Assembly (NCBI RefSeq): GCF_047739415.1
Contig: NZ_JBIQOE010000218.1
Coordinates: 15,254 to 79,253, forward strand
DNA: 64,000 nt
Direction of reading: 5' to 3'
From: Mesobacillus sp.
GTDB lineage: Bacteria; Bacillota; Bacilli; Bacillales; Cytobacillaceae
Shown: in pieces, positions 5,450 through 53,876 of the stretch
Layout of the letters: every line of letters begins with the position of its first letter
Numbering within the stretch: position 1 is the stretch's first letter
Program-made: the position numbers and the translations under genes
Notes under the pieces: generated by a model
What the model saw: the letters and a program-made list of their open reading frames with translations, nothing else
The model's database searches: none
What the model was told of the DNA's origin: nothing

Positions 5450-5803
5450 ATGAATGACAAAACGTCCATAAAGGTTGGTTATAAAGACTTAGACTTGCTT
5501 GAATACGATGAAGACACTCTAAGGTTTTTACGTAAAAAACTAGATGATTTTACTATCGATGTATTCAGAAGAATTATTACGGAAAACAAGTTACATAGAG
5601 GGCTTATTAAAGCCAGGCTTGAGGATTTCCACAGCATGAGGAAAAAGTATGATGCATCATTTCTGATTTTAGAGGCACAAGGATTTATAGAAAAAAAGGA
5701 AGATGGTACAGCTACCCCGTATTTTGTTACAGTTCGGGGTAGGCAACTTGGACAGTTATTAAAAATGGAAAAGTTAGAGCGAGAGGAGCTTGTAAATGAT
5801 TAA
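5450..5803 (+). CDS. tubR: TubR-like winged-helix centromere-binding protein (assigned mainly by position)
   Basis: 117 aa from the ATG at 5450, with RBS AAAGGTGG upstream. The ORF-track start at 5393 lies inside the repeats. A wing-like segment is FIEKKEDGTATPYFVTVRGRQL. The gene overlaps the tubZ start by 8 nt. Confidence 0.55.
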   Translation: MNDKTSIKVGYKDLDLLEYDEDTLRFLRKKLDDFTIDVFRRIITENKLHRGLIKARLEDFHSMRKKYDASFLILEAQGFIEKKEDGTATPYFVTVRGRQLGQLLKMEKLEREELVND

Positions 5804-7154
5804 ACCATTTGCTGAAAATGAAAAACTAGGGGCAATTAAAGCTTTGCTATCCCCACATTTGTTGTCTGATGAAGTTAAAAAGGAAATGAATCGTTTTCCT
5901 TCTCAAGCCATTATTGGCTTAGGACAAGGTGGAGGACGTATTGCAGCAGAATTATCAAGGTTTGGTTTTCCTACATTTTTATTAAATTCCTCAAAGTCTG
6001 ATATGGAAGAACATAAAAATTTGATCCCTGAGAATAGACGGATTGTGACTTCAAGTAAGGACTACCCAGAGCTTGAAGGAACCGACAAAGATGCACGATT
6101 AGGCTTTGAAATCGCAAAGGAAAATAAAGATCTGTACGCTAGTGTTGCTTTAGATGACGCAATTCAAGATGCTGAGTTTGTTTGGGTGTGTGTAAGCCTT
6201 GGTGGCGGGACTGGTAATGGAGCACTAAAAGTCGCATTAACGTATCTTTCGAAGGTAAGGCAGAACAGAGCACTTCCGGGCGGAAAAATCCCTCTTGGTG
6301 TCATCTGTTCACTCCCATCTTCCGATGAAAAGGGGTCAGCTTTTAGAAAAAATGCACTTGCCGGTATCAGTGTCATCCAACAATTAATGAACGAAAGTAA
6401 AATGGGTACTGCCATTGTTATAGACAACGAGAAAATGAATGACTACTATGCTCACAGCCCTCTCAAGACCTACGGAGGAACAGAAATTGATGCGAAGTCA
6501 TATAGTAACATGGTAATTGCAAGTGCGTTGGCAGAAGTTTCTTCTCTTCCTTTACTTGATGGTCGATCCGTTTTTGATAAGACAGAATTGCTGACTACAC
6601 TATCAACTCCAGGATGGCTCTCCATATCGAAGCATAAAGATTTAAAAAATGATGAAGATATTGAATCTGTCATCGGTAATCTTTTTAATAATAACGAGGT
6701 TCTTGCGAATTACAAGGTCCAGAACGCCATAGCTGGAGCTGTCGCAGTATTGTATCCTACAACTAAAAATATATCACCTAAAATTGCTGATGATGTTTAT
6801 CGATATACTTCCAAGCTATTAAATACAAAAGTGAACCTATCAATCTCTAAAAATAGCAAGATGGAGAGCCTAGCTTTGTATGGTTTGGCGGTTTATTTGA
6901 CCCCTTCTATACGTATTCAGCAGTTGAAAGAAGAACTAAAACAATGGGAACAAATCGAAAAAGAACAAGAAGAAGCCAAAAAGCAAGCGGCTTCCAGTAT
7001 AGGTCTTGATGAATTTGAAGATTTCTTCTCTTCTCCTAATATGGCAAAGGGAAGAAAAAAATTAACTCTCACTGATTTGGATGAGGACTTCGAAGAAACT
7101 ATGAAGGAGTCAAAAAAAATTATAGCTGCGGATCTAAATGACATAGATTTTTAA
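5796..7154 (+). CDS. tubZ: TubZ-like tubulin/FtsZ-superfamily GTPase (type III plasmid partition)
   Basis: 452 aa. Tubulin signature motif SLGGGTGNG and T1-loop-like GLGQGGGRIA. Charged, flexible C-terminal tail. Preceded by a small DNA-binding gene. Confidence 0.8.
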   Translation: MIKPFAENEKLGAIKALLSPHLLSDEVKKEMNRFPSQAIIGLGQGGGRIAAELSRFGFPTFLLNSSKSDMEEHKNLIPENRRIVTSSKDYPELEGTDKDARLGFEIAKENKDLYASVALDDAIQDAEFVWVCVSLGGGTGNGALKVALTYLSKVRQNRALPGGKIPLGVICSLPSSDEKGSAFRKNALAGISVIQQLMNESKMGTAIVIDNEKMNDYYAHSPLKTYGGTEIDAKSYSNMVIASALAEVSSLPLLDGRSVFDKTELLTTLSTPGWLSISKHKDLKNDEDIESVIGNLFNNNEVLANYKVQNAIAGAVAVLYPTTKNISPKIADDVYRYTSKLLNTKVNLSISKNSKMESLALYGLAVYLTPSIRIQQLKEELKQWEQIEKEQEEAKKQAASSIGLDEFEDFFSSPNMAKGRKKLTLTDLDEDFEETMKESKKIIAADLNDIDF

Positions 7155-12357: not shown

Positions 12358-13257
12358 CTAAGATGCAATCGTTAATTTCTCTGATGACTGCACATCAGTC
12401 GAACGCATATAACCTTTCTTCGCATGAAAAAAAGTGATGTGTGAGTTAATATTATAATCCTCAATAAGGATTGTAAGTATGTTTGCAATTGACAAGGCTG
12501 CTAATTTGTTCACTATTAATCTTTGAGGTTCAGAAGCAGTTAGTTCGGTACAAGAAAGCTCACTCGGCCGAATATCGTCTTGGTCCTGAAGAACATCAGG
12601 GAACATTTCAGCCATTGGTGCTTGTTTGAATAAATTCATCCTTACACCAGTGACTACCTGACCGCTCCATCCACTTTCACGGTAATCCCGTAACTCTTCT
12701 TCGGTCCATCTCTCTTTTGGCCTCGTTCTCCAATCATCAGGTACCTTTGTTGACTCATTTCCTGCATCGATATATACTACAGTCTTCATTTTCTTAAACA
12801 GTTCATGAATGACTCGGCGAGTATAGTTATTGTCCACACAGCCCACAATTATCGGCAAAAACAATTTATTACATTGTCGCTCTCCCTCATCATACATGGA
12901 CATGTATTCCATTGAAAAAAGAGCCCGCAAGTCTTTCTCTGATTCGATATAAGAATCGCTAAAAGAGCCAATGTCAATTCCATAAGCAGCCGAATAGCGG
13001 CTTGCCAAAACATCAGCCTTTTTCAAACCTACCTCCTGTGGCAGAAATAACTGATTTCCTAAATTTTTTTCTTCAATAACGTCAGGGTCAGCAATTACAT
13101 ACGCCGCTTTTGTCTTCGTTGTCCCTAATAGTTGAGCGATATGTTGAACAACATAACCACCCGTGCCTCCAGCTCCGACCTGCACAATAAAGGGGAAAAC
13201 ACCTTGATAGTCGTACCAATTATCTTTAGCTGCTTTTAGAATGTTAATTCCGTTCAT
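12358..13257 (-). CDS. ThiF/MoeB/E1-like adenylyltransferase (ubiquitin-activating-enzyme-like)
   Basis: 299 aa. Rossmann motif VQVGAGGTGGYVV, ThiF-type box DPDVIEEKNLGNQLF and the downstream VGCVDNNYTRRVI. Candidate catalytic Cys in LSCTELT. The start overlaps the JAB gene stop (ATGA). Confidence 0.75.
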   Translation of the reverse strand: MNGINILKAAKDNWYDYQGVFPFIVQVGAGGTGGYVVQHIAQLLGTTKTKAAYVIADPDVIEEKNLGNQLFLPQEVGLKKADVLASRYSAAYGIDIGSFSDSYIESEKDLRALFSMEYMSMYDEGERQCNKLFLPIIVGCVDNNYTRRVIHELFKKMKTVVYIDAGNESTKVPDDWRTRPKERWTEEELRDYRESGWSGQVVTGVRMNLFKQAPMAEMFPDVLQDQDDIRPSELSCTELTASEPQRLIVNKLAALSIANILTILIEDYNINSHITFFHAKKGYMRSTDVQSSEKLTIAS

Positions 13258-14195
13258 GCTACCACAACCTCAACTTTTGACATATCAAAGGCTGGAAGCG
13301 ATTTAAACGGATCCTCAAACACCAGATGAAAAGGCACTGGTTTATGGCCTTCATCCTCAGAAATAAAGCAACGAATTGTTATATCCGGCAATGGCTTTTG
13401 CAAACCTCCTACGATAGCATAAATCATCCCAGGAAGCCGTTCTGATTCGTTATCTTGAGTAGAGGGGAGGGGAGCCATACAATGGTGAGAATGAATCTCT
13501 AAAACCTTTATGGCATCTTCAACTCTCTCTGCAATATCGTATGAAGATTCGCTAACTTCACACCAATATTTATGAACCCGCTGTGCCGGAACATCTAAAA
13601 AGAAATGCCCTGTTGCACTTTTGTAAATGTCAGCATGGATTTCTAGAGATTGTTCAGCGTACAAACGGGCCAAGCTTATAAATTGGCTTAATACATTGAA
13701 CGGAACGGGAAAAGAAACGCCTTCTTGCGAAGACGTTTCTCTACAATTCCCTTTCTTTTTTGCTTTCATGACTGGAATGACAATATTCTTGTCCTTCAAA
13801 TAAACCATCTCCGTCATGTCCTTTACAAGTTCAGGAAAATCCTTTTCCATTCTTTTGCGAAGTAATTCTCCATCCAATGGACGTCTTTCTGTTTCTCCGT
13901 CTTTCTTTTTGACTAGCAAGCCTTCAGCTAATTCCTCTGAAGTAAAATAGGAAATGATTTCGATGGATTCACCAAAGTAACGAATCACTGTATCCTGGTT
14001 TACTTCAAAAAGATCTTTTTCCGTCCCCTTATTTTCGGCGCTAGTAGCAGCCTTCTTATTTTCCACCTGTTTACGCAATTCTTCGGCTTTTCGAGCCCTT
14101 TCTTCTTCCTCCTGCTTTTTTTGCTCAGCGTATTCATCAACAATCCCAAACATTGAAAAAATATCTTCCTGCCCTGCGATTACATTCTTAGTCAT
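13254..14195 (-). CDS. JAB/MPN+ (JAMM) metalloprotease with N-terminal coiled-coil and a Ubl-like segment
   Basis: 313 aa. Exact JAMM motif H235-S-H237-x7-S245-x2-D248 (EIHSHHCMAPLPSTQD). Candidate upstream Glu at WCEVSES. Residues about 62-149 (VIRYFGESIEI...DFPELVKDMTEMVYLKDKNIVIPVMKAKKKG) look like a beta-grasp ending in Gly. Confidence 0.75.
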   Translation of the reverse strand: MTKNVIAGQEDIFSMFGIVDEYAEQKKQEEEERARKAEELRKQVENKKAATSAENKGTEKDLFEVNQDTVIRYFGESIEIISYFTSEELAEGLLVKKKDGETERRPLDGELLRKRMEKDFPELVKDMTEMVYLKDKNIVIPVMKAKKKGNCRETSSQEGVSFPVPFNVLSQFISLARLYAEQSLEIHADIYKSATGHFFLDVPAQRVHKYWCEVSESSYDIAERVEDAIKVLEIHSHHCMAPLPSTQDNESERLPGMIYAIVGGLQKPLPDITIRCFISEDEGHKPVPFHLVFEDPFKSLPAFDMSKVEVVVA

Positions 14196-14212
14196 TAAAA
14201 TCCACTCCTAAT

Positions 14213-14932
14213 CTAATTATTTTTTTTGAATAGATCTCCAAACTTATTGTTACTTGGCATAAGCCAGTCATCATCAAAAGGTTGTTCTTTAATTCGCTCG
14301 ATTAAAGCTCGGAATCTGGATATCCCCAAGGTTGTACGCACACCGTGATCTTCGTTAAACGGAGAGGCAACAAACCACCTAAAGGCACGCTCTAGTTCAA
14401 CGATATCCTTAATTTCTAACCTTTGATTCAACCCCCAGCATACGATCCCATTGCTCTTACCGACATTAGGATATGGGAATACAAACAAAGGGGTATCATC
14501 AGTAACTGGACACCCGTTGTCCTGAACTGCATAGATTCTCATTTCAGATATCTTTAATCCCCTATTTCCAAATGGTACAAGAAGATATTGTAAAACCATT
14601 CGAGGAAACCCAATGGTAAAAAAATTTTCTTCTTCTCCATATCGGATTTCCCACATCTTCTTTTCTAATAGCATTGTAACGCGCTGCTTACTACCAGATT
14701 CATTTGAAGAGTAGCGAATGCATCTTGCAGGAAGGGTAGGAGTGCTCTTTTCTTCGTTGCGTTTTGCATCTGCATCGTAAGCATTTTCTGGAGCCTGCTG
14801 TAACGCTTGGATAATATCTTCAACCCGATAATAAAATGGACCTTTCCGCACACCATTGTCACCAATTTGAAAAGCTTCTATTGGGAATTCAGACGATTTT
14901 GGAACATCTGACAGTTCAAATTGCCACCGCAT
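14213..14932 (-). CDS. Prokaryotic E2/UBC-like protein
   Basis: Start taken at the ATG at 14932, which follows AAGGAG at 9-nt spacing; the ORF track begins 20 codons earlier. The E2-like active-site context is FPYPNVGKSNGIVCWG (HPN-like YPN, then Gly-x-x-Cys). Confidence 0.6.
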   Translation of the reverse strand: MRWQFELSDVPKSSEFPIEAFQIGDNGVRKGPFYYRVEDIIQALQQAPENAYDADAKRNEEKSTPTLPARCIRYSSNESGSKQRVTMLLEKKMWEIRYGEEENFFTIGFPRMVLQYLLVPFGNRGLKISEMRIYAVQDNGCPVTDDTPLFVFPYPNVGKSNGIVCWGLNQRLEIKDIVELERAFRWFVASPFNEDHGVRTTLGISRFRALIERIKEQPFDDDWLMPSNNKFGDLFKKNN

Positions 14933-15437
14933 TTGATTCTTGCTCCTTTCTAGTCGGTAATATGTCCAGAAGGACATACAGAACATCAACAAGGTCTATA
15001 GGTCCGTCATCTTCATACCATGTCAAAATTACTCCATTTTCAATTGAAGTAATCTCACCATAGCCACAATAAAAATCCGCGCCTCCACCGATGGTTCCTG
15101 AGCGAATTTTTGTATGGTCAATACGATCATCCAGGATAACAATAATTCCCGTGCCTTCCAGGTCATCATGATGGTGAGAAAGGCCGGCACGTTCGCACCA
15201 ATATGTTTTATCAGGAATCTCTTCTTCACCGCTATGAGGAAACCAATAATCTACGATAGTAAAGACGGAATTCACTGTATGCATGAAAATGTCCCAGTCA
15301 TATTCCTGTCCAAAATCATAATTAACCACATAGTGGGGGAACTTTTTTAAATCCACACCATAGTCAAATGCTAGTTTCATTAGCATAAGATTTTGAACTG
15401 TCCCCTTAAGACTATAGTAATCATCATGTGACTCCAT
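14916..15437 (-). CDS. Acidic hypothetical protein (173 aa) in the Ubl-system array
   Basis: RBS GGAGGGA. Lies 10 nt after the upstream gene and overlaps the E2-like start by 17 nt. No family recognised. Confidence 0.5.
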   Translation of the reverse strand: MESHDDYYSLKGTVQNLMLMKLAFDYGVDLKKFPHYVVNYDFGQEYDWDIFMHTVNSVFTIVDYWFPHSGEEEIPDKTYWCERAGLSHHHDDLEGTGIIVILDDRIDHTKIRSGTIGGGADFYCGYGEITSIENGVILTWYEDDGPIDLVDVLYVLLDILPTRKEQESNAVAI

Positions 15438-15821: not shown

Positions 15822-16949
15822 TTATGTTGTTCTTACCGGCAACACAAGCTGAAGCTCTTCGTAGGTTGATGAACATGGAGTAACCAGAAAAGGCCTCATG
15901 TTACCCTGGTATTTAAAGTTGATATATTCATCATCTATCGCTTTTAGAGCGTCAATCATGTATTTGGAAGAGAAAGAAATGGTAAAATCGTCTTCACCGC
16001 TCAATTCCTCGTAATCAACCACTTCTACACCTTTACCAATTTGCGATTGGTGAGTGGAGATTGTGGCTGCTCCATTAACGTGAAGTTTTACCACTCCGCC
16101 TTTTCCATTGTCTGCTCCATTGGCCAATCCGCTTATACGATCAAGACTCTCCAAAAATTCTTTGCGACTTATTTTCATTTCCGCTCTGAACTCTGTAGGG
16201 ATAAGACGTGAAGTATCAGGATAATTGCCTTCTAACAAGCGGCTATAAAAGAATAACGCTCCATTTTTAAACACCACTTGATTATCAGATTCACAATATA
16301 GGCTAACATCCTCTTGTAAATCGAAGGTTTTGGCCAGTTTATCTAATGACTTTGCTGGAATAACCAATCTTAAGTCTTTCTTTCCTTCCACCTTTGACTT
16401 AACTTGGCCCAAACGGTGAGAATCCGTACAGACCAGCTGCATACAATCTTCCGTGATAGATAGATTGACGCCTGTTAGGATAGGCCGAATTTCCGAATCT
16501 GATGCAGCGAAAGATGTTTTCTTTACAAAAGAATTGAAATCTGTACCTTTCAATGTGAAGGTAGGTTTTTCAATATCAAAAGTAGGTAGTTTCGGATATT
16601 CTTCCGGATCAAAAGTGTTAAGATTGAATTCTGATTTTTTACCATATTTAATGGTCAAATTAAAGTCGATTAGTTTTAATTCCAAATTCTTCTTCAGCTT
16701 TTTCGAGATATCCGATACTTGCTTCGGTAGAACAGTCTTGCCTGGAACAAACACATCGACATTTTCACCATCAACCGGAATATGATAACGGAAAGATTCC
16801 GTGCTGTCAGAACCAACCAAGATGATCTCTTGTTCATTAACTTCCATAAAGACGCCTTGAAGAATGGGAATACTGTGCTTAGCATTTACCACTTTCTCCA
16901 CCTTTTTTAGTGCTTCAGCAAAAAGTTGACTATCGATTTTAAAATGCAT
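15822..16949 (-). CDS. dnaN: DNA polymerase III beta sliding clamp, extra-chromosomal copy
   Basis: 375 aa. DnaN-like N-terminus MHFKIDSQLFAEALKKVEKVV...IPILQGVFMEV. Typical length and three-domain layout, with C-terminus MRPFLVTP...LVLPVR. Confidence 0.85.
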   Translation of the reverse strand: MHFKIDSQLFAEALKKVEKVVNAKHSIPILQGVFMEVNEQEIILVGSDSTESFRYHIPVDGENVDVFVPGKTVLPKQVSDISKKLKKNLELKLIDFNLTIKYGKKSEFNLNTFDPEEYPKLPTFDIEKPTFTLKGTDFNSFVKKTSFAASDSEIRPILTGVNLSITEDCMQLVCTDSHRLGQVKSKVEGKKDLRLVIPAKSLDKLAKTFDLQEDVSLYCESDNQVVFKNGALFFYSRLLEGNYPDTSRLIPTEFRAEMKISRKEFLESLDRISGLANGADNGKGGVVKLHVNGAATISTHQSQIGKGVEVVDYEELSGEDDFTISFSSKYMIDALKAIDDEYINFKYQGNMRPFLVTPCSSTYEELQLVLPVRTT

Positions 16950-22011: not shown

Positions 22012-22041
22012 ATGAGAAAATATACAAAAAAAGTACTATTA
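22012..22041 (+). pseudogene. 5' fragment (10 codons) of the HNH-repeat gene split by the transposon
   Basis: AGGAGA RBS, then ATG at 22012 reading MRKYTKKVLL. Continues in frame at 31513 once the transposon and one TATTA copy are removed. Confidence 0.7.
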
Positions 22042-22079
22042 GGGGTTCCGTCAGGAAAATGCGGATTTACAACGCTAAG
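22042..22079. repeat. Left terminal inverted repeat of the Tn3-family element
   Basis: ggggttccgtcaggaaaatgcggatttacaacgctaag. As I recall it, this closely resembles the Tn1546 IR (GGGGTAGCGTCAGGAAAATGCGGATTTACAACGCTAAG). Confidence 0.9.
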
Positions 22080-22115
22080 CACATTTTCGAGACGGTTCCC
22101 CCTTTTTTAACAACG

Positions 22116-24863
22116 TTAAGAAAGTTTTAGTGGTCTTAAAGAGCCTATAGAGATTACCTTCTCCGGATTAAAGTGATATTCTCCTAGTAAATTAATATGT
22201 TCCCAACCTAGAGGCGACATATGGTGCAATAATTCTTCATTAAAACTACGAGACTGTTTTTGATATTCGACTGCTTTTGTTAGATGTAAGGTATTCCAGA
22301 TACCGCATTAATGATTATATTTAAGGCACTGGCCCTTTGCAATTGATGCTGTATGGTTCGTTCCCTAAGCTCACCTTGTTTTCCAAAGAAAATAGCCCTT
22401 GCCAATCCATTCATGGCTTCTCCTTTATTCAATCCTCGTTGTATTTTTCTTCTTAATGATTCATCCGATATATAATTCAAAATAAAGATCGTTTTTTCTA
22501 TTCGGCCCATCTCACGTAAGGTGGTAGCTAAGCTGTTTTGTCTTGAATAGGAACCTAGTTTCCCCATAATAAGGGATGTTGAAACTGTTCCTTCCTTTAT
22601 AGAATGAGCTAATCGCAAAACATCTTCATAATTTTCTTTAATGACCTTTGTATTTATTTGTCCACGTAAAATGGCTTCTAATTTTGGATATTCACTTGCT
22701 TTATCTATTGTAAATAATTTTGAATCTGATAAATCTCTTATTCTTGGAGCAAATTTAAATCCTAATAAATGAGTAAGCCCAAATATTTGGTCTGTGTAAC
22801 CAGCTGTGTCTGTATAATGCTCTTCTATATTTAGATCCGTCTCATGGTGACAATTGTAATTTATGGAAATTTACTAATATGGCTTGTGCCTTATTCATTG
22901 CATCTTCATACAGACGCCATTGAGATACATTGGCTAGTTGCTTATATGTAAGTCCGGGTGTGGCTTCGGCCATCTTGCTTAAGCCAATATTCATTCCCAT
23001 TCCTAAAAGGGCAGCCATGATAATGATTGTTTCCTCCTTATCTGGTTTTCGATTATTGGAAGCATGAGTGAATTGCTCATGAAATCCTGTTATATGAGCA
23101 ACATCCATAAGTAAATCAGTTAATTTTATTCTTGGTAGCATTTGATAAAGGCTTGCGCTAAATTTTTTTGCTTCTTCTGGAACATCTTTTTCTAAGCGTG
23201 CAAGTGACAGTTTTCCTTTTTCAAGAGAAACCCCATCTAACTTGTTGGAATTGGCAGCTAACCATTTTAACTTTTCATTAAGGCTACTGGTTCTCTTTGT
23301 TATATAATCTTTGAATGATAAACTAACTGATAATCTCGTATTCCCCTTCGATTGATTCCATATATCTTCCGAAAACAAATATTCCTCAAAATCCCTATAT
23401 TGTCTGCTGCCAACAATAGAAACATCTCCTGCCCGAACATGCTCCCGAAGTTCTGTTAAAACAGCCATTTCATAGTAATGACGATTAATTGTTGTACCAT
23501 CATCCTCGTATAAATGCTTTTTCCATCGTTTTGAAATAAAATCCACAGGTGAGTCATCAGGCACTTTTCGCTTTCCGGATTCGTTCATTCCTCGAATAAT
23601 CTCAACAGCCTGTAAAAGTGGCTCATTTGCCTTTGTAGAATGGAATTCCAATACTCTTAATAGCGTTGGCGTATATTTTCTTAGTGAATAAAACCGTTTT
23701 TGCAGTAAGTCCAAATAATCATAGTCGGCAGGACGGGCAAGCTTTTGAGCATCTTCTACTGAAGAGACAAAGGTATCCCATTCAATAATCGATTCTAAAA
23801 CCTTAAAAACGTCTAATTTTTCCTCTCTTGCTTTAATTAATGCTTGTCCGATGTTCGTAAAGTGTATAACTTTCTCATTTAGTTTTTTACCGTTTTGTTT
23901 CTGGATTTCCTCTTGAGCCTTACGACCTTTTGATAACAAACTAAGTATTTGCCTATCATGAATTTCAAACGCATTATCTGTTAGCTCCTGAGTAAGTTGT
24001 AATAAATAGACGGTTAATATCGAATAACGTTTATTTTCTTGAAAGTCACGGAATGCATACGGCTCGTATCTTGAACCTAAGCGAGATAGCTGTAATAGGC
24101 GGTTGCGATGCAAATGGCTAATTTTTACCGTCTCTAATTCTATTCCCCGAATGTATTCGAGTCGTTCTATTACTTTCAGAAATGTTTCGGGTGAAGGATG
24201 ACCCGGTGGTTCCTTTAACCAACCCAATAACGTTTTATTGGATTCGGATGGATGCTGCGAAGTAATGATCTCTTCAAGTTTTACTTTTTGCTCATTTGTT
24301 AGGGACTGACTAACCGTATTAAATAGCTTCTTTTCGGCCATTGCTCTTGCCTCCCACACCATTCTCTCAAGTGTAGTGATAGCAGGTAGTATGATTTTGT
24401 TTTTTCTTAGGAGGTCGATACATTCATGTAGTAGATGAATGGCATCACCATTTTCCAAAGCTAATTGATGAAGATGCTTAAAGGTCATTCGATATTCTTT
24501 TAGGGTAAAAGTTACAAAATCGTATTCACTTCGAATTTCTTTCAAATGATCCCAAAGTGTATTTTCTCTTTGAGGATAAAGACTAAGTGAAGATGGACTA
24601 GCACCGATTTGTTTTGATATATAATGTATGAGCGAATCTGGGATGCTTTTGATATGAGTGTACGGCCAACCAGGGTACCGAAGAACGGCTAATTGAACGG
24701 CGAACCCTAACCGGTTTTCTTCTCTTCTTCGTTTATTTATAATTTCTAAATCTCGTTTGGAAAAAGTGTAGTAGGTTCCTAGCACCCAGTCATCTTCTGG
24801 AATTTGCATAAGAGCCTCTCTCTGTTCGGGTGTAAGCAATTCCCTACCTCTCGCAATTTTCAT
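22116..24863 (-). pseudogene. tnpA: Tn3-family transposase TnpA, disrupted by at least two frameshifts
   Basis: A 673-aa N-terminal ORF (22842-24863), a 112-aa fragment (22280-22618), and a further C-terminal segment in another frame (WNTLHLTKAVEYQK...LRPLKLS, stop at 22116). Together these span about 915 codons. Confidence 0.8.
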
Positions 24864-25010
24864 TCAGCATCATCCCATTTCTATAATTTCTCAATTTATT
24901 ACTTCAATTATATATCAATAGAGTGTACTCTATTGATACAAGTATAGTAGACTGATAAAATCATAGTTAAGAGTGTCTCATAAGACTTGTCTCAATAACG
25001 AGGTGAAATT
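24864..25010. promoter_or_regulatory. res region between tnpA and tnpR
   Basis: Palindrome tatcaatagag-tgta-ctctattgata at 24913-24938. TGTCTCA repeats lie at about 24975-24995. The position is typical for res sites and divergent promoters. Confidence 0.6.
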
Positions 25011-25586
25011 TTGCAGAAAATCGGTTATGTACGCGTCAGTTCGACTAGCCAAAATCCTTCAAGACAATTTCGGCAATTGAACGAAATTGGAATGGATATT
25101 ATTTATGAAGAAAAAACTTCAGGAGCCACAAAAGATCGTGAACAACTTCAAAAAATGTTAGAGGATTTACAGGAAGGTGACATTATTTATGTTACAGATT
25201 TAACTCGGATCACTCGAAGTACGCAAGATTTATTTGAATTGATTGATTTAATACGAAATAAAAAGGCAAGCTTAAAATCACTTAAGGATACATGGCTAGA
25301 TTTATCAGAAGATAATCCATATAGCCAATTCTTAATTACGGTAATGGCTGGTGTTAACCAATTAGAGCGAGACCTTATTCGTATGCGTCAGCGTGAAGGA
25401 ATTGAGCTCGCAAAGAAAGAAGGGAAGTTTAAAGGACGGTTAAAGAAATATCATAAAAATCACGCAGGAATGAATTATGCAGTAAAGCTATATAAAGAAG
25501 GAAATATGACTGTAAATCAAATTTGTGAAATTACAAATGTATCTAGAGCTTCTTTATATAGAAAGCTATCGGAAGGAAAAAAATAA
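25011..25586 (+). CDS. tnpR: Serine recombinase (resolvase)
   Basis: 191 aa. The N-terminus MQKIGYVRVSSTSQNPSRQ carries the catalytic Ser context. C-terminal HTH NQICEITNVSRASLYRKL. Confidence 0.85.
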   Translation: MQKIGYVRVSSTSQNPSRQFRQLNEIGMDIIYEEKTSGATKDREQLQKMLEDLQEGDIIYVTDLTRITRSTQDLFELIDLIRNKKASLKSLKDTWLDLSEDNPYSQFLITVMAGVNQLERDLIRMRQREGIELAKKEGKFKGRLKKYHKNHAGMNYAVKLYKEGNMTVNQICEITNVSRASLYRKLSEGKK

Positions 25587-25840
25587 GCATTCATTACTTA
25601 TATTAAAAATTTCCGGGGATTGTGAAACAACGTACCTAACCAAGCAGGCTATTTCTATAAGGAAGTATCAATATTTGTTTATCTAACTAGGCACGATCAT
25701 CAAAGGGTTCCGAGTACATTTTAACGGAGATATACGCTAAACTCAGATTTAAAGCAAGGCTGTATTTTCCGAGAACACTTTATAAAAAACAACCTTAGTC
25801 AATCACAAACGAAGGTTGTTTTTATAAAGTCATGGTCTAA

Positions 25841-26293
25841 TTAAAACAATTGCTGTCCCAAGAGCATACTTGAGACTGAAAAGGCACCAGCAGGTGGTAA
25901 AACATTAGTATATATGGGAGGTCCCAAACGGGGTGTAAAGGTTGTAGCAATCCAATTTCCATATTCACCAGCCAGCAAAGAGGGAGGTTTCATTATAAAC
26001 CGTCCACTTAAAACGAAATGCCGAATGCTTATAGCGGTCTCATCAAATATTGTCAAGTTGCCAAAAAAGGAGGCATATGGTGAATCGAAACTTATTTGTT
26101 TAGCGCTTTCGTCCCAATACCCATTAATCGGAATAGGTATACCACGAAAATTAACTGTACCTACTACTTTGTTGTCTACAATGGAATCAATGGTAAGTAT
26201 ACCTCTAATAATGGATCTCCCCGCAATAGAAGCATCAATCCCCCATACGGATGGAAAGGGGATACTAACTTTGGCTGTCTTTGGAATTTTCAA
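25841..26293 (-). CDS. Hypothetical protein (transposon cargo)
   Basis: 150 aa. TTG start after AAGGAGAGG. Followed by the hairpin aacaacctt...aaggttgtt at about 25786-25822. Preferred over the overlapping plus-strand ORF. Confidence 0.45.
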   Translation of the reverse strand: MKIPKTAKVSIPFPSVWGIDASIAGRSIIRGILTIDSIVDNKVVGTVNFRGIPIPINGYWDESAKQISFDSPYASFFGNLTIFDETAISIRHFVLSGRFIMKPPSLLAGEYGNWIATTFTPRLGPPIYTNVLPPAGAFSVSSMLLGQQLF

Positions 26294-26657
26294 AATTAAC
26301 CTCTCCTTGATTATTTTATGTATGGATTGAGTTGTATTTAATCATAATCCTGTAGTAATGATACAGTATATGCACAGAGAATCACTTAGGTGTTTTGTTA
26401 AGAAAGAAGCATCAATAATCAATCAGCCTACTGTCTAGATGAACAAGAGTTTGCCTGACCCACGAAAAATATGGAACATTAATTCCTGCTGCTCATACAT
26501 ATGGTCTCGCATTTGGAAAATTTCTTAGCTTTAAAATAAATCATCTGATTCAATGAAATGTAATGCCTATCATCACCTATTTTTATATGTACCTCAGAAG
26601 AATTCCTATACCTCCGTTACTCTTCGATCATATTGCATTTGTACGAGGTGGTGTAAA

Positions 26658-27348
26658 ATGTTTAAATTATATTTAGATCCTGGTCACAGGGGAGTGGACC
26701 CAGGAGCTATTGGCAATGGGATGCAGGAAAAAGAAATTACCTTAAATATTTCCCATAGCATTCGAAATCTCTCGGAAAACCATTATGAAGGCCTGCAAAT
26801 TAAAATGAGTAGAACAGCAGATATTACGCGCAGCTTAAAAGAACGTACAGATGATGCGAATGCTTGGGGTGCAGATTATTTTCTATCCATCCACGTTAAT
26901 GCATTTAACGGTTCAGCTCATGGGTATGAAGATTATATTCATAACAGTTTGTCTGATTCATCGAGAACAGCGTTCATTCGGGACATTAGAAATTGTCAAA
27001 GTAAATAACTTGCATAACCGTGGCAAAAAAAAGGCCAATTTCCATGTACTGCGAGAAACCAGAATGCCCGCTTTATTAACGGAGAACGGATTTATTGATC
27101 ATGCAAGCGATGCCCAAAAATTAAGAGACCCGAATTGGCGGCAAGCGGTTGTCCAAGGGCATGTTAATGGGTTAGCACGCGCGTTTAATTTGAAGAGAAA
27201 ATCGACTAATCTGAAAAGCAATATGGCTATTAAACGTGTAATTGTTGACGGTGTGCAAGTAGGTGCTTACGCAGAAGAAGAAAATGTGTTGAGAACTGTA
27301 CAACGCAACCTGAGAACAGCACAAAGGATTATTATTGAAAATGTGTAG
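26658..27348 (+). pseudogene. N-acetylmuramoyl-L-alanine amidase (Amidase_3 type), frameshifted
   Basis: The N-terminal part reads MFKLYLDPGHRGVDPGAIGNG...LSIHVNAF in one frame. The C-terminal part reads NRGKKKANFHVLRETRMPALLTENGFIDH in another. The switch is near 26960-26990. Confidence 0.7.
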
Positions 27349-27432
27349 TTTCGTTGGGATAACGGTTGCTTGACTGCAAGCACGTTAAAGTTTTATCAAA
27401 ATGGATAACTAGGCTGGATGAACAAAATATAC

Positions 27433-27468
27433 GCTAAGCCTTTGATGTGACGGGCTTAGCATTTTTTT
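27433..27468 (+). terminator. Intrinsic terminator after the amidase gene
   Basis: Stem gctaagcc / gggcttagc followed by T7. Confidence 0.7.
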
Positions 27469-27596
27469 CTTGCTCTAAGTTGGTCCGGCCGATATAAGCC
27501 AGGACTAGCTTAATATCAGATGAATAGAACGAAGTTGTTGAGGGAATTATAGCTCATGATGTTTCTATTTCCAATTGTTGGATTTGAGGTGAGTTT

Positions 27597-28670
27597 TTGC
27601 CTAAGATTACTCCTATTCAGTCATACATGATTATTATGCTTTCGGTTGGATTAATGAACCACGTGATTATTATCCCTTTACTACTCGAAGCATCAAAGCG
27701 AGATGCCTGGCTCGTAGTGCTTCTTGTTTTTGTCGCTTCACCTGTTTGGATTGGTTGCTTGAACTACATCATTCAAAACATGAACAATCAACACATGAAA
27801 AAGTGGCTAGATCAGCACTTTGGAAAGTTTTTATCTGCAATCTTAGTGATTATTTATAGTTTGTTATTATGGCTCATGGGCTTTATTTCCTTAAAAGATA
27901 CTCTAACATGGACAATCGCATCTTACTTGCCGCAAACACCGATACTAGTTCTTGCGGGAACCACACTTGTTGCATGCTTCTTTGCTGCTTTTCAAGGACT
28001 CCGTACAATTGCAATTGTGAGCGGAATATTGTTGCCATTTGTTGTTATTCTAGGTCATCTTGTGGCGATTGCCAATTTTCAGTTTAAAGATTATACCCTG
28101 CTTTTTCCTTTGTTAGAAAACGGGACAGCTCCATTATGGAAAGGTGTTCCTTACGTTGCCGGGGGATTGCTGGAGTTGTCTTTCTTGATGTTGCTGATTC
28201 AGCACAAATTAACAAAAAAACCAGGATTTAAAAGCTTGATGTTGATGTGCTTCATCCTTACAGGACTTACGTTAGGACCATTGATGGGATCGATTGCGAT
28301 ATTTGGCCCTGATGAAGCGGCTAACCAGAGATACCCAGCTTACGCTCAATGGAGAATCGTTAGACTGGGAGAATATGTGGAGCATGTCGATTTTTTTTCG
28401 ATTTACCAGTGGCTATCCGGTACATTCATTCGTGTGTCCCTTTCTATCTATCTCTTGGGAGAATTGTGGAATTTACAAAAACGCAGTTGGTTACCCGTGT
28501 TATTTGGCGCATTGGCCATGCTTGTTGCCATTTTGCTGCCGATGAGCGACATGGCTTTTCTAGACTTGTTAGGAAGGTTTTATTTTCCTTCATTTTGTAT
28601 CTTTACAGTAGGGACCTTGATCCTGTATGTTGGTCGAATGATCATCTCAAGAATTCGCCAAAAGGAGTGA
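27597..28670 (+). CDS. Spore germination protein, GerAB/GerKB-type permease subunit
   Basis: 357 aa, about 10 TM segments. Sits directly upstream of the GerA-family subunit. RBS GAGGTGAG with a TTG start. Confidence 0.75.
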   Translation: MPKITPIQSYMIIMLSVGLMNHVIIIPLLLEASKRDAWLVVLLVFVASPVWIGCLNYIIQNMNNQHMKKWLDQHFGKFLSAILVIIYSLLLWLMGFISLKDTLTWTIASYLPQTPILVLAGTTLVACFFAAFQGLRTIAIVSGILLPFVVILGHLVAIANFQFKDYTLLFPLLENGTAPLWKGVPYVAGGLLELSFLMLLIQHKLTKKPGFKSLMLMCFILTGLTLGPLMGSIAIFGPDEAANQRYPAYAQWRIVRLGEYVEHVDFFSIYQWLSGTFIRVSLSIYLLGELWNLQKRSWLPVLFGALAMLVAILLPMSDMAFLDLLGRFYFPSFCIFTVGTLILYVGRMIISRIRQKE

Positions 28671-28679
28671 CTAGCTAGG

Positions 28680-30221
28680 ATGAATAAACTATTCCGACGA
28701 ATGAAAAGAATATTTGGAAATCAGGGGGCAGAAAGCAAGAGGCCATCGCCTAATACAGAGGCAACAGTCTTGCAACCGCTTAATGAACAATCACTCATCC
28801 AACACTTTAAAATGTGTCAAGATGTTAAGCGCCATGTTTACAAATTAAACCCTGATGATGAACAATCGAGAATCCTATTGCTTTATTGTGAGGGGTTAAG
28901 TGACAACCAAACATTCATTCATGAAACTGTGCTTCCTCATTTGACCCGATTTTATGAAAACAATGGTTTTCACCATCAGGAGGAAATAGTCGAGTCGAGC
29001 CAACTACAATTAGAGTTCGTTACTCTTGAGGAGTGGGAGCAAACGGCCGAAACGGATATTTTTGAAGGCAAACTGCTTTTGTTTATTCCGACCCTACGTT
29101 CCTTGTTCTCCCTCGATATCTCAAAAAAACCGGCGCGAAATCCGGAAGAATCCAGTATTGAGGTCTCGGTACGGGGGCCAAAGGATGGATTTGTGGAAGA
29201 AGTGGGAGTCAATGTGGCGTTAATTCGGAAACGAATCAAATCAACCAGCATGGTTTATGAAACGAAAAAAGTAGGCGTTCGCACGAAAACAACCGTTGCA
29301 ATTCTTTACATGCGTGACATTGTTGATCCTAAGATTGTTCAAGATGTAAAGAATAAATTAGATGATCTTCACATTGACGGAGCGTTTAGCGCCACTCAGC
29401 TAGAAGAATTAATGGAACCGACAAAAGCATTGTTTCCTTTGATGGGGTATACAGGCAGACCAGACTTTACCGCTAACTGTATGCTAAATGGCCGTGTAGC
29501 GTTGATTGTGGATGGTACACCAGCTGCGTTGATTGCGCCTGCCAATTTATTTTTGCTTGTGAAAGCACCCGAAGATATCCACTTTACTGCTTTGTCAGCT
29601 ACATTTGGTCAAACGCTTCGTTTACTTGGTTTGTCCGTATCGCTACTGCTTCCTGCATTTTTTGTTGCCATTCTTTCCTATCATCAAGATCAGCTGCCCT
29701 ATTATCTGCTTGCCACTTTGGGGATTAACCGGTTGGGAATCCCTTTTGATTCGGCAACTGAAATGATTATTGTACTTATCTTTTTAGAAATCCTGCGGGA
29801 ATCTGGTATCCGATTGCCTACTGCGGTCGGCTCCACGATAACGGTTGTAGGCGGACTTATCCTCGGGGATGCGGCCATTCGTGCTGGATTCTTATCCCCA
29901 GGTACCGTTGTCATCGGAGCAATTACACACATCTTTGGTTCAACTTTATCGAGCCTATCATTGGCTGGAACAATTAGTATCTTACGCTTTTTTCATTTCA
30001 TTCTGTCTGCCATGCTTGGCATTTATGGCTTCTTCCTTGGAATATTTATTTTACTCAGCCATTTAGCCTCTTTGCGTTCATGCGGCTTGCCTTACTTAGC
30101 CCCAATATCACCTCCATTTAAAGACTTTTTCAACGCTTTGTTCCGATTACCTTGGCAATGGCGAAACACTCGACCGGACATGTTGAAGACACAAGATTCT
30201 ACAAGGAAGAGGGACAGGTAA
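28680..30221 (+). CDS. Spore germination protein, GerAA/GerKA-type subunit
   Basis: 513 aa. A soluble N-terminal domain plus a C-terminal membrane domain, with the typical SVRGPKDGFVEEVGVNVALIRKRIK box. Confidence 0.8.
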   Translation: MNKLFRRMKRIFGNQGAESKRPSPNTEATVLQPLNEQSLIQHFKMCQDVKRHVYKLNPDDEQSRILLLYCEGLSDNQTFIHETVLPHLTRFYENNGFHHQEEIVESSQLQLEFVTLEEWEQTAETDIFEGKLLLFIPTLRSLFSLDISKKPARNPEESSIEVSVRGPKDGFVEEVGVNVALIRKRIKSTSMVYETKKVGVRTKTTVAILYMRDIVDPKIVQDVKNKLDDLHIDGAFSATQLEELMEPTKALFPLMGYTGRPDFTANCMLNGRVALIVDGTPAALIAPANLFLLVKAPEDIHFTALSATFGQTLRLLGLSVSLLLPAFFVAILSYHQDQLPYYLLATLGINRLGIPFDSATEMIIVLIFLEILRESGIRLPTAVGSTITVVGGLILGDAAIRAGFLSPGTVVIGAITHIFGSTLSSLSLAGTISILRFFHFILSAMLGIYGFFLGIFILLSHLASLRSCGLPYLAPISPPFKDFFNALFRLPWQWRNTRPDMLKTQDSTRKRDR

Positions 30222-30223
30222 AA

Positions 30224-31387
30224 ATGAGGAGATATAAAAGTATCGTTGCATTTTTCCTTCTTCTCACCCTTACCGGTTGCTGGGGCAAAAATGAAGTGCA
30301 AAACACAAACTATGCTACGGCTGTTGGAATAGACTATGTAGATGGCCAATACACCTTATATGTGCAATTGCTTGATTTCTCGACAGTGGCCAAGCTGGAG
30401 GGACAGCAAAAAGCGGAGCAACCCCCAGTTTGGATTGGCAAAGGCGAAGGTTCCTCGTTTACGGAGGCGGCAAATGATATGTACAGTACATCACAACAGC
30501 GCTTATACTGGGGACAAGTCTCAGCCATCTTGTTCAGCGAGAGATTGATGAAGGAAAACAAAGTCGGAGAAGTGCTGGAATTGATCAACCGTTATCGTGA
30601 AATAAGGGAGTTGACCTGGGTGTTTAGCACGAGAGAGCCTCCTGAAGAAATCTTGCTGGCAACCCCATTTTTTAGATTATCGCCAAAGGCATCCATTCTT
30701 CACAATCCCGAGCAAAATTTCAGACAGCTTTCTATCCTTGCTCCGGTCCGCTTGCAACAATTTTTACTGGACTCAAACGAAAAGGCAAGAACCAGTTATA
30801 TACCGGAATTATCGCTTCGTAAAGGTCAATGGCAGGAAAGTCAAAAACCAAAAGAGCTGCTTAGATATTCAGGCGTACAAGTATATGATCTAAACAATTA
30901 TTATGGACGAATGGATCTTAAGGATTTGTCCGGATTGCCTTGGCTAAGTACTCACACGATCCGAGTACCTCTTGATTTATTTACCAAAGAGAAGCTTGCG
31001 GCTGTTCTTGTCATAGAAAAACCCAAATATGAAGTGACTCCTATTGTGAAATTGAACAAGGCGTATTTCGATATTTCAGTAAAAGTGAAGGCAGAAATCA
31101 ATGAATTGCATACGGACCTTACCGAAAAGGAACTCACACAAATGGCTCAGGAAAAAATAGAGGAACAAATTCGTAAAACGTATCAAACTGCTTTTAAAAA
31201 TGAAATAGATATTTACGATTTGGGCGAATCTTTGTATCGCAAACACCCACATCAATGGAAGAGCATTGCCACAGGAAAACAGCAACTCGTTTTAAACCAA
31301 GATTCCCTGCGTCATGTAAAGGTTGAGGTGAATATTGTTTACCCTGGAAGATATAAATTACATGAATATGGGGAATCCACCTCGTGA
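30224..31387 (+). CDS. Spore germination protein, Ger(x)C-type lipoprotein subunit
   Basis: ATG at 30224, 2 nt after the gerA-type stop. Lipobox LTLTGCWG. Typical NYATAVGIDY start of GerxC proteins. Confidence 0.8.
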   Translation: MRRYKSIVAFFLLLTLTGCWGKNEVQNTNYATAVGIDYVDGQYTLYVQLLDFSTVAKLEGQQKAEQPPVWIGKGEGSSFTEAANDMYSTSQQRLYWGQVSAILFSERLMKENKVGEVLELINRYREIRELTWVFSTREPPEEILLATPFFRLSPKASILHNPEQNFRQLSILAPVRLQQFLLDSNEKARTSYIPELSLRKGQWQESQKPKELLRYSGVQVYDLNNYYGRMDLKDLSGLPWLSTHTIRVPLDLFTKEKLAAVLVIEKPKYEVTPIVKLNKAYFDISVKVKAEINELHTDLTEKELTQMAQEKIEEQIRKTYQTAFKNEIDIYDLGESLYRKHPHQWKSIATGKQQLVLNQDSLRHVKVEVNIVYPGRYKLHEYGESTS

Positions 31388-31416
31388 TTCTGGTAAGGGA
31401 AATTATTGCCCTCACC

Positions 31417-31454
31417 CTGCTTCTTCTGCTTAGCGTTGAAGAAGCAGAGTTTTT
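31417..31454 (+). terminator. Intrinsic terminator after the ger operon
   Basis: Stem ctgcttcttc (31417-31426) / gaagaagcag (31438-31447), followed by agttttt. Confidence 0.7.
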
Positions 31455-31469
31455 GTATACAAAAAATAG

Positions 31470-31507
31470 TTTAACGTTGTAAATCCGCATTTTCCTGACG
31501 GAACCCC
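31470..31507. repeat. Right terminal inverted repeat of the Tn3-family element
   Basis: The reverse complement reads ggggttccgtcaggaaaatgcggatttacaacgttaaa, a 36/38 match to the left IR. Confidence 0.9.
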
Positions 31508-31512
31508 TATTA

Positions 31513-32265
31513 GAATTTGCTCAAGAAAATCGTGAATTTTTTACGTCTGCTTCCAAATGGAATGAATACGCTAAAGAATATAGCCTGCCAAGTGTAGGTT
31601 GTTATAAGCGGTACTTTGGCTCGTGGAATAATGCCAAAAAATTAATTGGTTCCCCCATCTCTAATCCAACAAAAATAGAGTATAAATATTCTGAAAACCA
31701 AATAATAGAGGCATTGCAACAAAATGAAGAAATTGCTGTGAAGTCTACTCTTTGGCAGGCATACGCACAAGAAAAGGGCCTTCCATCATTTGAAACAATC
31801 GTCGGAAGATTTGGTTCTTGGAAAGCTGCCTTGTTATCAGCAGGTTTATCAAGTGACAAAGGAATGCCAACTCCACATACACCTGACAAGATGTATTCGA
31901 AGGAAGAATTAATTACCATTGCAAAAAAGCATAAATCTTCCTTTGTAAACAAAACACAATGGGATGAATACTCTAAGCTTCATAAATTGCCCTGCAGTTC
32001 GACATACACTAAACACTTTGGTTCTTGGGGCCTATCTTTGAGAGCTGTTGGAATCAATCCAGTTATAGAGCGAACCAAGAAATACACAAAAAACGACCTG
32101 ATTAAACTTGCTGCTCAAAATCTAGATCTTTTATCAAGTTCCAAGCGTTGGAGAGGATGCGCTGCTTCAAGAAATCTTCCAACCTATAGAACCTATATTA
32201 TCTACTTTGGTTCTTGGAAAAATGTGCAAAAATCCGTTGAATTATATTTACGTAAAGCAAATTAA
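31513..32265 (+). pseudogene. 3' part of the transposon-split gene encoding homing-endonuclease-associated (HNH_repeat-like) repeats
   Basis: Open frame from 31513, in frame with 22012-22041. Repeats of the form W(N/D/Q)EYAK..LPS....(Y/H)FGSW are present. No nuclease domain was seen. Confidence 0.7.
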
Positions 32266-32350: not shown

Positions 32351-32380
32351 AAAGACATACAAATTAATAGTAACGGGACG

Positions 32381-32442
32381 GCCCCGAGGAAACTGTATGA
32401 AACACTATTTATCGTGATTCATACAGTTCTTCGGGGCTTTTT
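32381..32442 (+). terminator. Long hairpin plus T-run in the leader of the T4SS operon (attenuator, or terminator of the upstream gene)
   Basis: gccccgaggaaactgtatgaa / ttcatacagttcttcggggc form a stem of about 20 bp with one bulge and a 15-nt loop, followed by ttttt. The first T4SS gene starts 27 nt further on. Confidence 0.6.
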
Positions 32443-32468
32443 GTGTTGCATTAAAAGGAGGTGAATAC

Positions 32469-53834: not shown

Positions 53835-53876
53835 TTTTTCAACTCCATTCAATACAAGATGGTTTTTATCAGATGC

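Follow-up and report, generated by a model that had tools for sequence, protein, structure and literature searches.

A recent Tn1546-family insertion with germinant-receptor cargo in a Mesobacillus HNH_repeat gene, recorded in occupied and empty alleles

Transposon Tn1546 ends in 38-bp inverted repeats (IRs) and is flanked by a 5-bp direct repeat (PMC2920175). The Tn1546 transposon described from B. subtilis has genes for a transposase (tnpA), a resolvase and a cardiolipin synthase, as well as yetF, the spoVA2mob operon and an operon that combines an amidase gene with gerKA and ger(X)C (PMC5133452), and some of the copies described from the B. subtilis group contain pseudogenes (Berendsen et al., PMC5133452). 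Here we describe a related element of 9,466 bp in a stretch of 64,000 nucleotides (nt) from Mesobacillus sp. (RefSeq assembly GCF_047739415.1, contig NZ_JBIQOE010000218.1, positions 15,254 to 79,253 of the forward strand), which we call the window. An initial annotation, made from the letters of the window, had seen in it a clean, relatively recent transposition of a Tn1546-like element into a plasmid gene; it had also stated that such elements of Bacillus carry amidase, ger and spoVA2mob genes, which agrees with the published account (PMC5133452). We find that an element of the Tn1546 family has recently inserted, with precisely defined ends, into an HNH_repeat gene, of which the occupied and the empty allele are both on record. 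It is highly probable that the locus as a whole is best explained by a Tn1546-branch insertion with a gerXBAC operon as cargo in a conjugative, plasmid-like backbone of a Bacillaceae host. In this account a Tn3-family unit transposon, from the Tn1546 branch, entered codons 9-10 of the 260-codon gene and duplicated the AT-rich pentamer TATTA.

The insertion and its empty site

The left IR (IRL) reads GGGGTTCCGTCAGGAAAATGCGGATTTACAACGCTAAG and the reverse complement of the right IR reads GGGGTTCCGTCAGGAAAATGCGGATTTACAACGTTAAA. Direct reading and comparison by script both gave the initially annotated match of 36 of 38 positions, the first 33 bases being identical. Both repeats begin with GGGG and are homologous to the IRs of Tn1546, and the resemblance to Tn1546 noted by the initial annotation held up on comparison with the IRL of pIP816 (Table 1). 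A search of the 64-kb window for this repeat, allowing up to three mismatches, returned two sites, which are the two ends of the element, against none expected from 100 shuffles. The TATTA pentamers reported by the initial annotation do abut both outer ends; the direct repeat is exactly 5 bp, since at 6 bp CTATTA and TATTAG differ, and this is the length of duplication made by the Tn1546 subgroup of the Tn3 family. By arithmetic from the GC content of the window (37.6%), a chance match of two 5-mers has a probability of ~0.0013. When the element and one pentamer are removed, the flanking fragments join as had been proposed, in a reading frame of 783 nt that comprises 260 codons and a stop, with no internal stop.

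The initial annotation had proposed to look for an intact allele on related plasmids; this check is the decisive one, and such an allele exists. A protein of 260 amino acids (aa), P0021, is residue-for-residue identical to the reconstructed product and falls in the same 90% cluster as the 183-aa C-terminal fragment encoded in the window. It is located on two assembled contigs, L011 (SRR28220598) and L012 (SRR28220596), which have the gene neighbourhood of the window without the transposon: genes for ThiF-like, Prok-E2-like, DnaN-like and Rad52-like proteins, a helix-turn-helix gene, a 477-aa gene and DUF4258 and DUF3854 genes lead up to the HNH_repeat gene, and genes for a type IV secretion system (T4SS) pilin, PrgI and a VirB4-like protein follow it. 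The empty site reads ...AAAAAAGTACTATTAGAATTTGCT... with one TATTA, and the window without the element and one pentamer is identical to both contigs at 2000 of 2000 positions across the joint. Over 19,892 bp of backbone, the occupied and empty versions differ by two mismatches (window positions 16050 and 18144) and no gaps, which bears out the view that the transposition was clean and relatively recent. For a Tn1546-family element outside the enterococci, a matched occupied and empty site of this kind is the cleanest evidence of recent transposition. The element of the window, with its deletions, is matched at 100% identity by further occupied copies, one from NCBI assembly GCA_047739335.1 (L009/L013) and one from SRR30877662 (L014).

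Megablast with the reconstructed 2-kb empty site gave no match in plasmid or phage records, and the backbone segment 32300-44000 gave none among plasmid records, because this backbone is simply absent from the plasmid and phage collections. A scan of species-representative genomes with the reconstructed protein detected only a 39% relative in Fredinandcohnia, in an uninformative context. Full-length HNH_repeat homologues of 266-274 aa (50-54% identity, starting with MRKYTKQQLL) align gaplessly across the joint, and the uninterrupted gene is therefore the ancestral state. Two of them, P0002 and P0005, were rejected as evidence for this particular site, as their loci represent other contexts, beside SinI and VanY genes.

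The restored product matches Pfam family PF18780 (HNH_repeat; E = 8.5e-22, three scored stretches), and alignment and structural model reveal four helical modules that contain FGSW, in agreement with the tandem, ~54-residue homing-endonuclease-associated repeats that define this family. The predicted structure (pLDDT 84, pTM 0.31) is consistent with four modules on flexible linkers, and Foldseek found no structure in the PDB at E <= 0.001 with this model. As PF18780 is the only Pfam match and there is no HNH nuclease domain in the 260-aa protein, the product is a stand-alone repeat protein, like its homologues of 266-274 aa. The insertion parts codons 1-10 and the ribosome-binding site from the other 250 codons, a TAA at 31480-31482 ends the frame that runs in from the right IR, and the first remaining in-frame start is a TTG at 31714 (183 aa). 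The gene is thus inactivated, because at best this unprogrammed 183-aa fragment could form.

The target is flanked by the DUF3854 gene on one side and by the type IV secretion operon on the other. A long and unusually strong hairpin followed by a U-run separates it from the T4SS pilin gene (Table 1) and may act simply as a terminator or else in the regulation of the transfer operon. A polar effect of the insertion on this operon seems unlikely, because the hairpin would insulate it and gerXC has a terminator-like hairpin of its own.

A defective, chimeric element and its mode of movement

The element is non-autonomous: both tnpA and the amidase gene are pseudogenes, which was missed in the initial annotation. 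Compared with intact 988-aa genes, tnpA has two out-of-frame deletions, of 212 bp after 22848 and of 4 bp after 22304, and an in-frame deletion of 3 bp after 22862. Tblastn with the intact 988-aa TnpA shows two frame changes and the absence of residues 674-742; the frame stops after 673 of 988 residues, with the positions of the DDE profile from 87 onward out of frame or missing. By descent this is a Tn1546-type DDE transposase gene (DUF4158 and DDE_Tnp_Tn3, ~988 aa), but with most of the DDE domain lost it cannot yield an active enzyme, and the element carries no functional transposase. The amidase gene of B. cereus pDQ01B, which is intact and encodes 232 aa, has 8 bp (ATGCATGA) that the window copy lacks between 26987 and 26988. 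These deletions are real, because they are multi-base rather than homopolymer slips and are identical in independent assemblies. The resolvase gene tnpR and the three ger genes are intact, and restoration of the four deletions gives an intact length of ~9,693 bp. A separate feature of the amidase pseudogene is a substitution at window positions 26685-26687, which gives DPGHRG in a conserved-looking motif that reads DPGHGG in the intact B. cereus homologue.

A switch of ancestry falls exactly at the 212-bp deletion. Compared with an element of Cytobacillus firmus (L019), the window has 78 mismatches in the 807 bp of 22042-22848 and 12 in the ~1,250 bp of 22849-24100, and the best match of the left segment among plasmid records is 94%. 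Other mosaic boundaries in this family of elements are clean, as where the window has ~100% identity to C. firmus L017 at 24042-28000 and 98-100% to L019 at 22842-24042, and are the expected pattern of homologous exchange between elements. An ancestry boundary that coincides with an out-of-frame deletion looks, from these alignments, like an illegitimate joint between two diverged elements.

These observations bear on how the element reached its present site. The left IR, which lies on the segment of foreign ancestry, and the right IR share one target duplication and were hence used together here, and the defects would predate the insertion because the backbone has gained only two substitutions and no indels in 19.9 kb. 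Trans-mobilisation of non-autonomous derivatives is established in the Tn3 family. The reading that we favour as probable places the defects before the insertion and has a related transposase supply the activity in trans. The element would then have been both defective and chimeric before it moved, the 212-bp deletion being the joint of two diverged Tn1546-like sequences; a related Tn1546-family transposase in trans would have acted on the two intact IRs to produce the insertion; and any cointegrate could have been resolved by the element's own intact resolvase at res. The element would now be immobile unless a helper transposase is present, while the conjugative backbone could still carry the germinant-receptor operon to new hosts. 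For the more specific scenario, that a chimeric and transposase-dead element moved in trans onto a conjugative element very recently and so created a self-transmissible carrier of a complete germinant-receptor operon, we see the chances as evenly balanced.

The main alternative is that an intact, autonomous copy was inserted by its own transposase, and that tnpA afterwards lost 212, 4 and 3 bp and the amidase gene 8 bp. Pseudogenised tnpA and cargo genes have been reported in some Bacillus Tn1546 copies (PMC5133452). Several points weigh against movement in trans, the first three of which also speak for decay in place: tblastn located only one tnpA locus, and hence no helper transposase, within the 64-kb window; a 32-mer spanning the joint had no match in metagenome contigs, which thus gave no further site for the defective element; the exact 673-aa TnpA product occurs only at this site or on the element-only contig L014; and the switch of ancestry is judged from a few reference copies of a highly mosaic family. 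Decay after insertion, however, would require four independent deletions within 9.5 kb, a large excess over the two substitutions and absence of indels in the 19.9-kb backbone. It would also leave the coincidence of the 212-bp deletion with the jump in divergence from 1% to 9.7%, which indicates a joint of two elements, and it is difficult to see how a joint of this sort would arise at the site itself with both IRs and the matching duplication preserved. We consider this alternative unlikely.

The two other alternatives concern the insertion itself. Were the occupied allele ancestral, the 'empty' contigs would have arisen by precise excision of the element; the two alleles are near-identical, so divergence alone gives no direction, but precise loss would depend on recombination between two copies of a 5-bp repeat, excision is not known for elements of the Tn3 family, which is characterised by replicative transposition through a cointegrate and by target immunity, and the full-length homologues (266-274 aa, 50-54% identity) show the uninterrupted gene to be ancestral, all of which makes this history very improbable. 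A misjoining of a repeat into the plasmid during assembly is hardly credible, for although contigs from short reads do end at the IRs (L014 comprises just the element, and L010 begins inside the right IR), such breaks are expected from a 33-bp perfect inverted repeat at a k-mer that we take to be ~31, both junctions are crossed, in identical sequence, by a contig of an NCBI assembly (L009/L013), and an exact 5-bp duplication with perfect in-frame restoration is the product of real transposition. Contig L014 was rejected as evidence of several copies, since it lacks only 3 nt per end, as expected from a break at the 33-bp IR.

Genes of the element and its backbone

The cargo consists of a broken sporulation-type amidase gene and a complete gerXB-gerXA-gerXC operon, in which genes predicted to encode the A, B and C subunits of a germinant receptor are adjacent as in the GerA family. 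The B-A-C order is that of the gerX operon of pXO1. The GerXA, GerXB and GerXC equivalog models of NCBIfam are the best matches, with scores below the equivalog cutoffs, so the three genes are not GerX orthologues in the strict sense; the 387-aa call for gerXC is also made in L009 and L017. The arrangement of an amidase gene and GerA-family genes downstream of tnpR corresponds to 'operon 1' of the Berendsen type, here with the amidase as a pseudogene, and none of the genes of the spoVA2mob operon (DUF1657, YhcN/YlaJ, SpoVAC/D/Eb, DUF1657, DUF421) lies between the IRs. Receptors of this family are marked by expression in the forespore and by response to a germinant; no match to a strict sigma-G-type promoter pattern was present upstream of the amidase gene or of gerXB, a sigma-70 promoter scan was uninformative (15 sites versus 18 expected), and Rfam gave no family match over the whole window.

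As is usual in the Tn3 family, a serine resolvase gene and a putative res lie beside tnpA. The 147-bp intergenic region is assigned as res by homology and position: its alignment to the Tn1546 counterpart, which takes in the palindrome TCAATAGAGTGTACTCTATTGA, needs a single 2-nt gap and shows few substitutions. The conserved open reading frame (ORF) orf150 occupies the same position in the B. cereus, B. velezensis and C. firmus copies, where it is annotated as a 453-bp hypothetical protein gene, with ~100% identity. A 138-aa ORF overlaps orf150 on the opposite strand.

Table 1. Features of the Tn1546-family element and its insertion site (window coordinates)
Feature	Position	Strand	Evidence or remark
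HNH_repeat gene 5' fragment, codons 1-10 (MRKYTKKVLL)	22012-22041	+	Identical to start of uninterrupted 260-aa allele P0021
TATTA target-site duplication, left copy	22037-22041		Adjoins outer end of IRL; empty site has single TATTA
Left 38-bp terminal IR (tnpA-proximal)	22042-22079	+	36/38 match to right IR; 2/38 differences from Tn1546 IRL of pIP816
Left-end segment, different ancestry	22042-22848		9.7% divergent from C. firmus L019, versus 1% right of the 212-bp joint
tnpA pseudogene (Tn3-family DDE transposase), over three reading frames	22119-24863	-	Three-frame translation; Pfam DUF4158 and DDE_Tnp_Tn3 fragments
tnpA-tnpR intergenic region (147 bp), putative res site	24864-25010		Aligns to Tn1546 intergenic region
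tnpR, intact 191-aa serine resolvase	25011-25586	+	Pfam Resolvase and HTH_7; ~100% nt identity to C. firmus and B. velezensis copies
orf150, conserved 150-aa ORF	25841-26293	-	No match in Pfam or NCBIfam; common to Bacillus Tn1546-like elements
N-acetylmuramoyl-L-alanine amidase pseudogene	26658-27348	+	Pfam Amidase_3 split over two frames
Terminator-like hairpin after amidase gene	~27433-27467		
gerXB-like germinant-receptor B subunit (spore permease), intact, 357 aa	27597-28670	+	Pfam Spore_permease; TIGR00912 (endospore permease) above cutoff
gerXA-like germinant-receptor A subunit, intact, 513 aa	28680-30221	+	Pfam GerA, E = 7e-136
gerXC-like germinant-receptor C subunit (lipoprotein), 387 aa from ATG 30224	30224-31387	+	Pfam Spore_GerAC_N and Spore_GerAC; TIGR02887 (Ger(x)C subfamily) above cutoff
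Terminator-like hairpin and U-run after gerXC	31417-31455	+	71-nt fold 31400-31470: -18.5 kcal/mol, z = -3.6
Right 38-bp terminal IR (cargo-proximal)	31470-31507	-	36/38 match to left IR
TATTA target-site duplication, right copy	31508-31512		Adjoins outer end of right IR
HNH_repeat gene 3' part, codons 11-260	31513-32265	+	Identical to P0021 residues 11-260
Long terminator-like hairpin and U-run, HNH_repeat gene to T4SS pilin gene	32373-32444	+	86-nt fold 32360-32445: -41.1 kcal/mol, z = -8.7; no Rfam family

The window encodes a T4SS, a coupling protein, a Replic_Relax-type relaxase, a TubZ-like protein and an MmeI-type restriction-modification enzyme. The plasmid backbone named by the initial annotation is likely, given the genes for the T4SS, coupling protein, relaxase-like and TubZ-like proteins, although an integrative conjugative element is possible; judged by its genes, the backbone is likely a conjugative plasmid. 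The TubZ-like gene (5796-7154) has a weak match to the Tubulin/FtsZ GTPase domain (E = 8e-07, below the Pfam cutoff), and this suggests a TubZ-type plasmid partition protein, which favours a plasmid over an integrated element. Nearly all clusters of backbone proteins are confined to this lineage; relatives of one protein occur in Mesobacillus subterraneus and Bacillus sp. ISL-55.

Other backbone genes were observed in passing. The minus strand at 51126-53852 encodes a complete single-polypeptide restriction-modification enzyme of 908 aa with all five MmeI Pfam domains, and the longest related contig has a 902-aa variant in its place. A four-gene cluster at 12358-15437 (minus strand) comprises genes for a ThiF-like E1 (PF00899), a 313-aa protein without family, a Prok-E2_D-type E2 (PF14460) and a 173-aa protein, the domains being taken from the gene tables of the empty-site contigs. 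The cluster adjoins the plasmid-borne DnaN-like and Rad52-like genes and is reminiscent of the ubiquitin-like conjugation systems of bacteria, a group with members that defend against phages. In L011 and L012 (19893-19922), the match to the window ends at ~41374, inside a gene for an SLT/M23 cell-wall hydrolase, and the contigs stop 30 nt further on; the hydrolase is called as 462 aa there versus 704 aa in the window. The break may reflect another insertion, or a repeat boundary, in those strains.

Relation to Tn1546 and to elements of Bacillaceae

The element shares its transposition module with Tn1546, the vanA transposon of Enterococcus faecium pIP816 (NC_011140.1). Nucleotide identity is 92% over tnpA-tnpR, the two genes diverge around a conserved intergenic region, and the 38-bp IRs (with two of 38 differences in IRL) and 5-bp target duplication are alike; over its first 673 residues, TnpA has 95% aa identity to the UniRef entry 'Transposase for transposon Tn1546'. 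Whereas Tn1546 carries vanRSHAXYZ, the element of the window carries the amidase gene and gerXBAC, has a pseudogene for tnpA and resides on a conjugative element of a Bacillaceae host.

The spoVA2mob transposons of the B. subtilis group have the same transposition module, orf150 after tnpR and amidase and ger cargo, as in B. velezensis pDMB05-2 (L016), which carries spoVA2mob. The element of the window differs from them in the absence of spoVA2mob, the Mn-catalase operon, yetF and the cardiolipin synthase gene, and ends directly after gerXC. Its ger operon has B, A and C genes, in contrast to gerKA and ger(X)C only in the B. subtilis element (PMC5133452).

A sister element is present in C. firmus (GCA_015844915.1, LDGM01000131.1, L017; also L018), with the same order of tnpA, tnpR, orf150, amidase, gerXB, gerXA and gerXC and 96.7% identity to the window over 8.6 kb (~100% over 24042-28000). 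All genes are intact in C. firmus, whereas the window copy has broken genes but both full IRs, and the left 800 bp are only 88% identical. In the sister element the right IR is truncated to its inner ~24 nt (L017 ~2600-2680, and L018), beside a tyrosine recombinase and DUF6262 gene pair, and that copy is probably also immobile as a unit. Because of this truncation, it is the window copy that shows both complete ends of the gerXBAC variant. The TnpA fragment is 96-97% identical to intact C. firmus TnpA. In other C. firmus elements (L019-L022), whose TnpA (P0040) is 97% identical to the fragment, the module carries a heavy-metal P-type ATPase and an ArsR-type regulator, a third type of cargo on the same transposition module.

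Remnants on megaplasmids of the B. cereus group (such as pMRY14-0074_2, pBc239, pDQ01B and the pCER270 type) have ~94% nucleotide identity to the window over the parts in common and retain tnpA, tnpR, orf150, amidase and ger fragments. Unlike the window copy, they are rearranged: the resolvase gene is duplicated, together with an AraC gene, gerXB and a portion of gerXA have been lost in 2.3-kb deletions, and insertion sequences have entered. No plasmid record covers at least 80% of the element, and no B. cereus-group copy matches it end to end.

A 36-mer from the gerXC-side end is present in six metagenome contigs, in which the internal sequence is 89-94% identical to the gerXC end of the window and the sequence past ...GGAACCCC continues into five different AT-rich flanks (AATAT, TAGAG, ATAGA, TAATA twice and TTATA). 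As five different flanks adjoin the same end, a short variant that ends in gerX has inserted at many AT-rich sites. The 90%-identity cluster of GerXA has 94 members, from Heyndrickxia, Cytobacillus, Priestia, Niallia, Sutcliffiella, Ornithinibacillus, Paenibacillus and others, a distribution that fits horizontal spread.

With respect to its movement, the element may be set beside TIMEs and similar non-autonomous derivatives of the Tn3 family, which have family-type IRs, no working transposase gene and a normal 5-bp duplication, and are moved in trans. The present element is full-sized by comparison and retains a resolvase, a res-like region and cargo, and its own mobilisation in trans would be of the same kind. 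The loss of a working transposase gene suggests that cargo of this type can go on travelling as a passenger of related elements.

The transposition module known from vancomycin resistance thus also moves a complete germinant-receptor operon among Bacillaceae, here onto a conjugative backbone, and the germination behaviour of spores matters for food spoilage and spore control. The natural pair of occupied and empty backbones, with two single-nucleotide polymorphisms in 19.9 kb, would offer a direct test of the effects of an acquired germinant receptor on germination and of HNH_repeat loss on transfer. Beyond the initial annotation, we recognize the element as a short, gerXBAC-only variant of a known element type, as a copy of chimeric make-up whose transposase is dead and which probably owed its movement to outside help, and as the passenger of a conjugative backbone. 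Set against Tn1546 and its Bacillus relatives, it belongs to a known kind of element and is an ordinary case of it, and our understanding of the family is unchanged by it.

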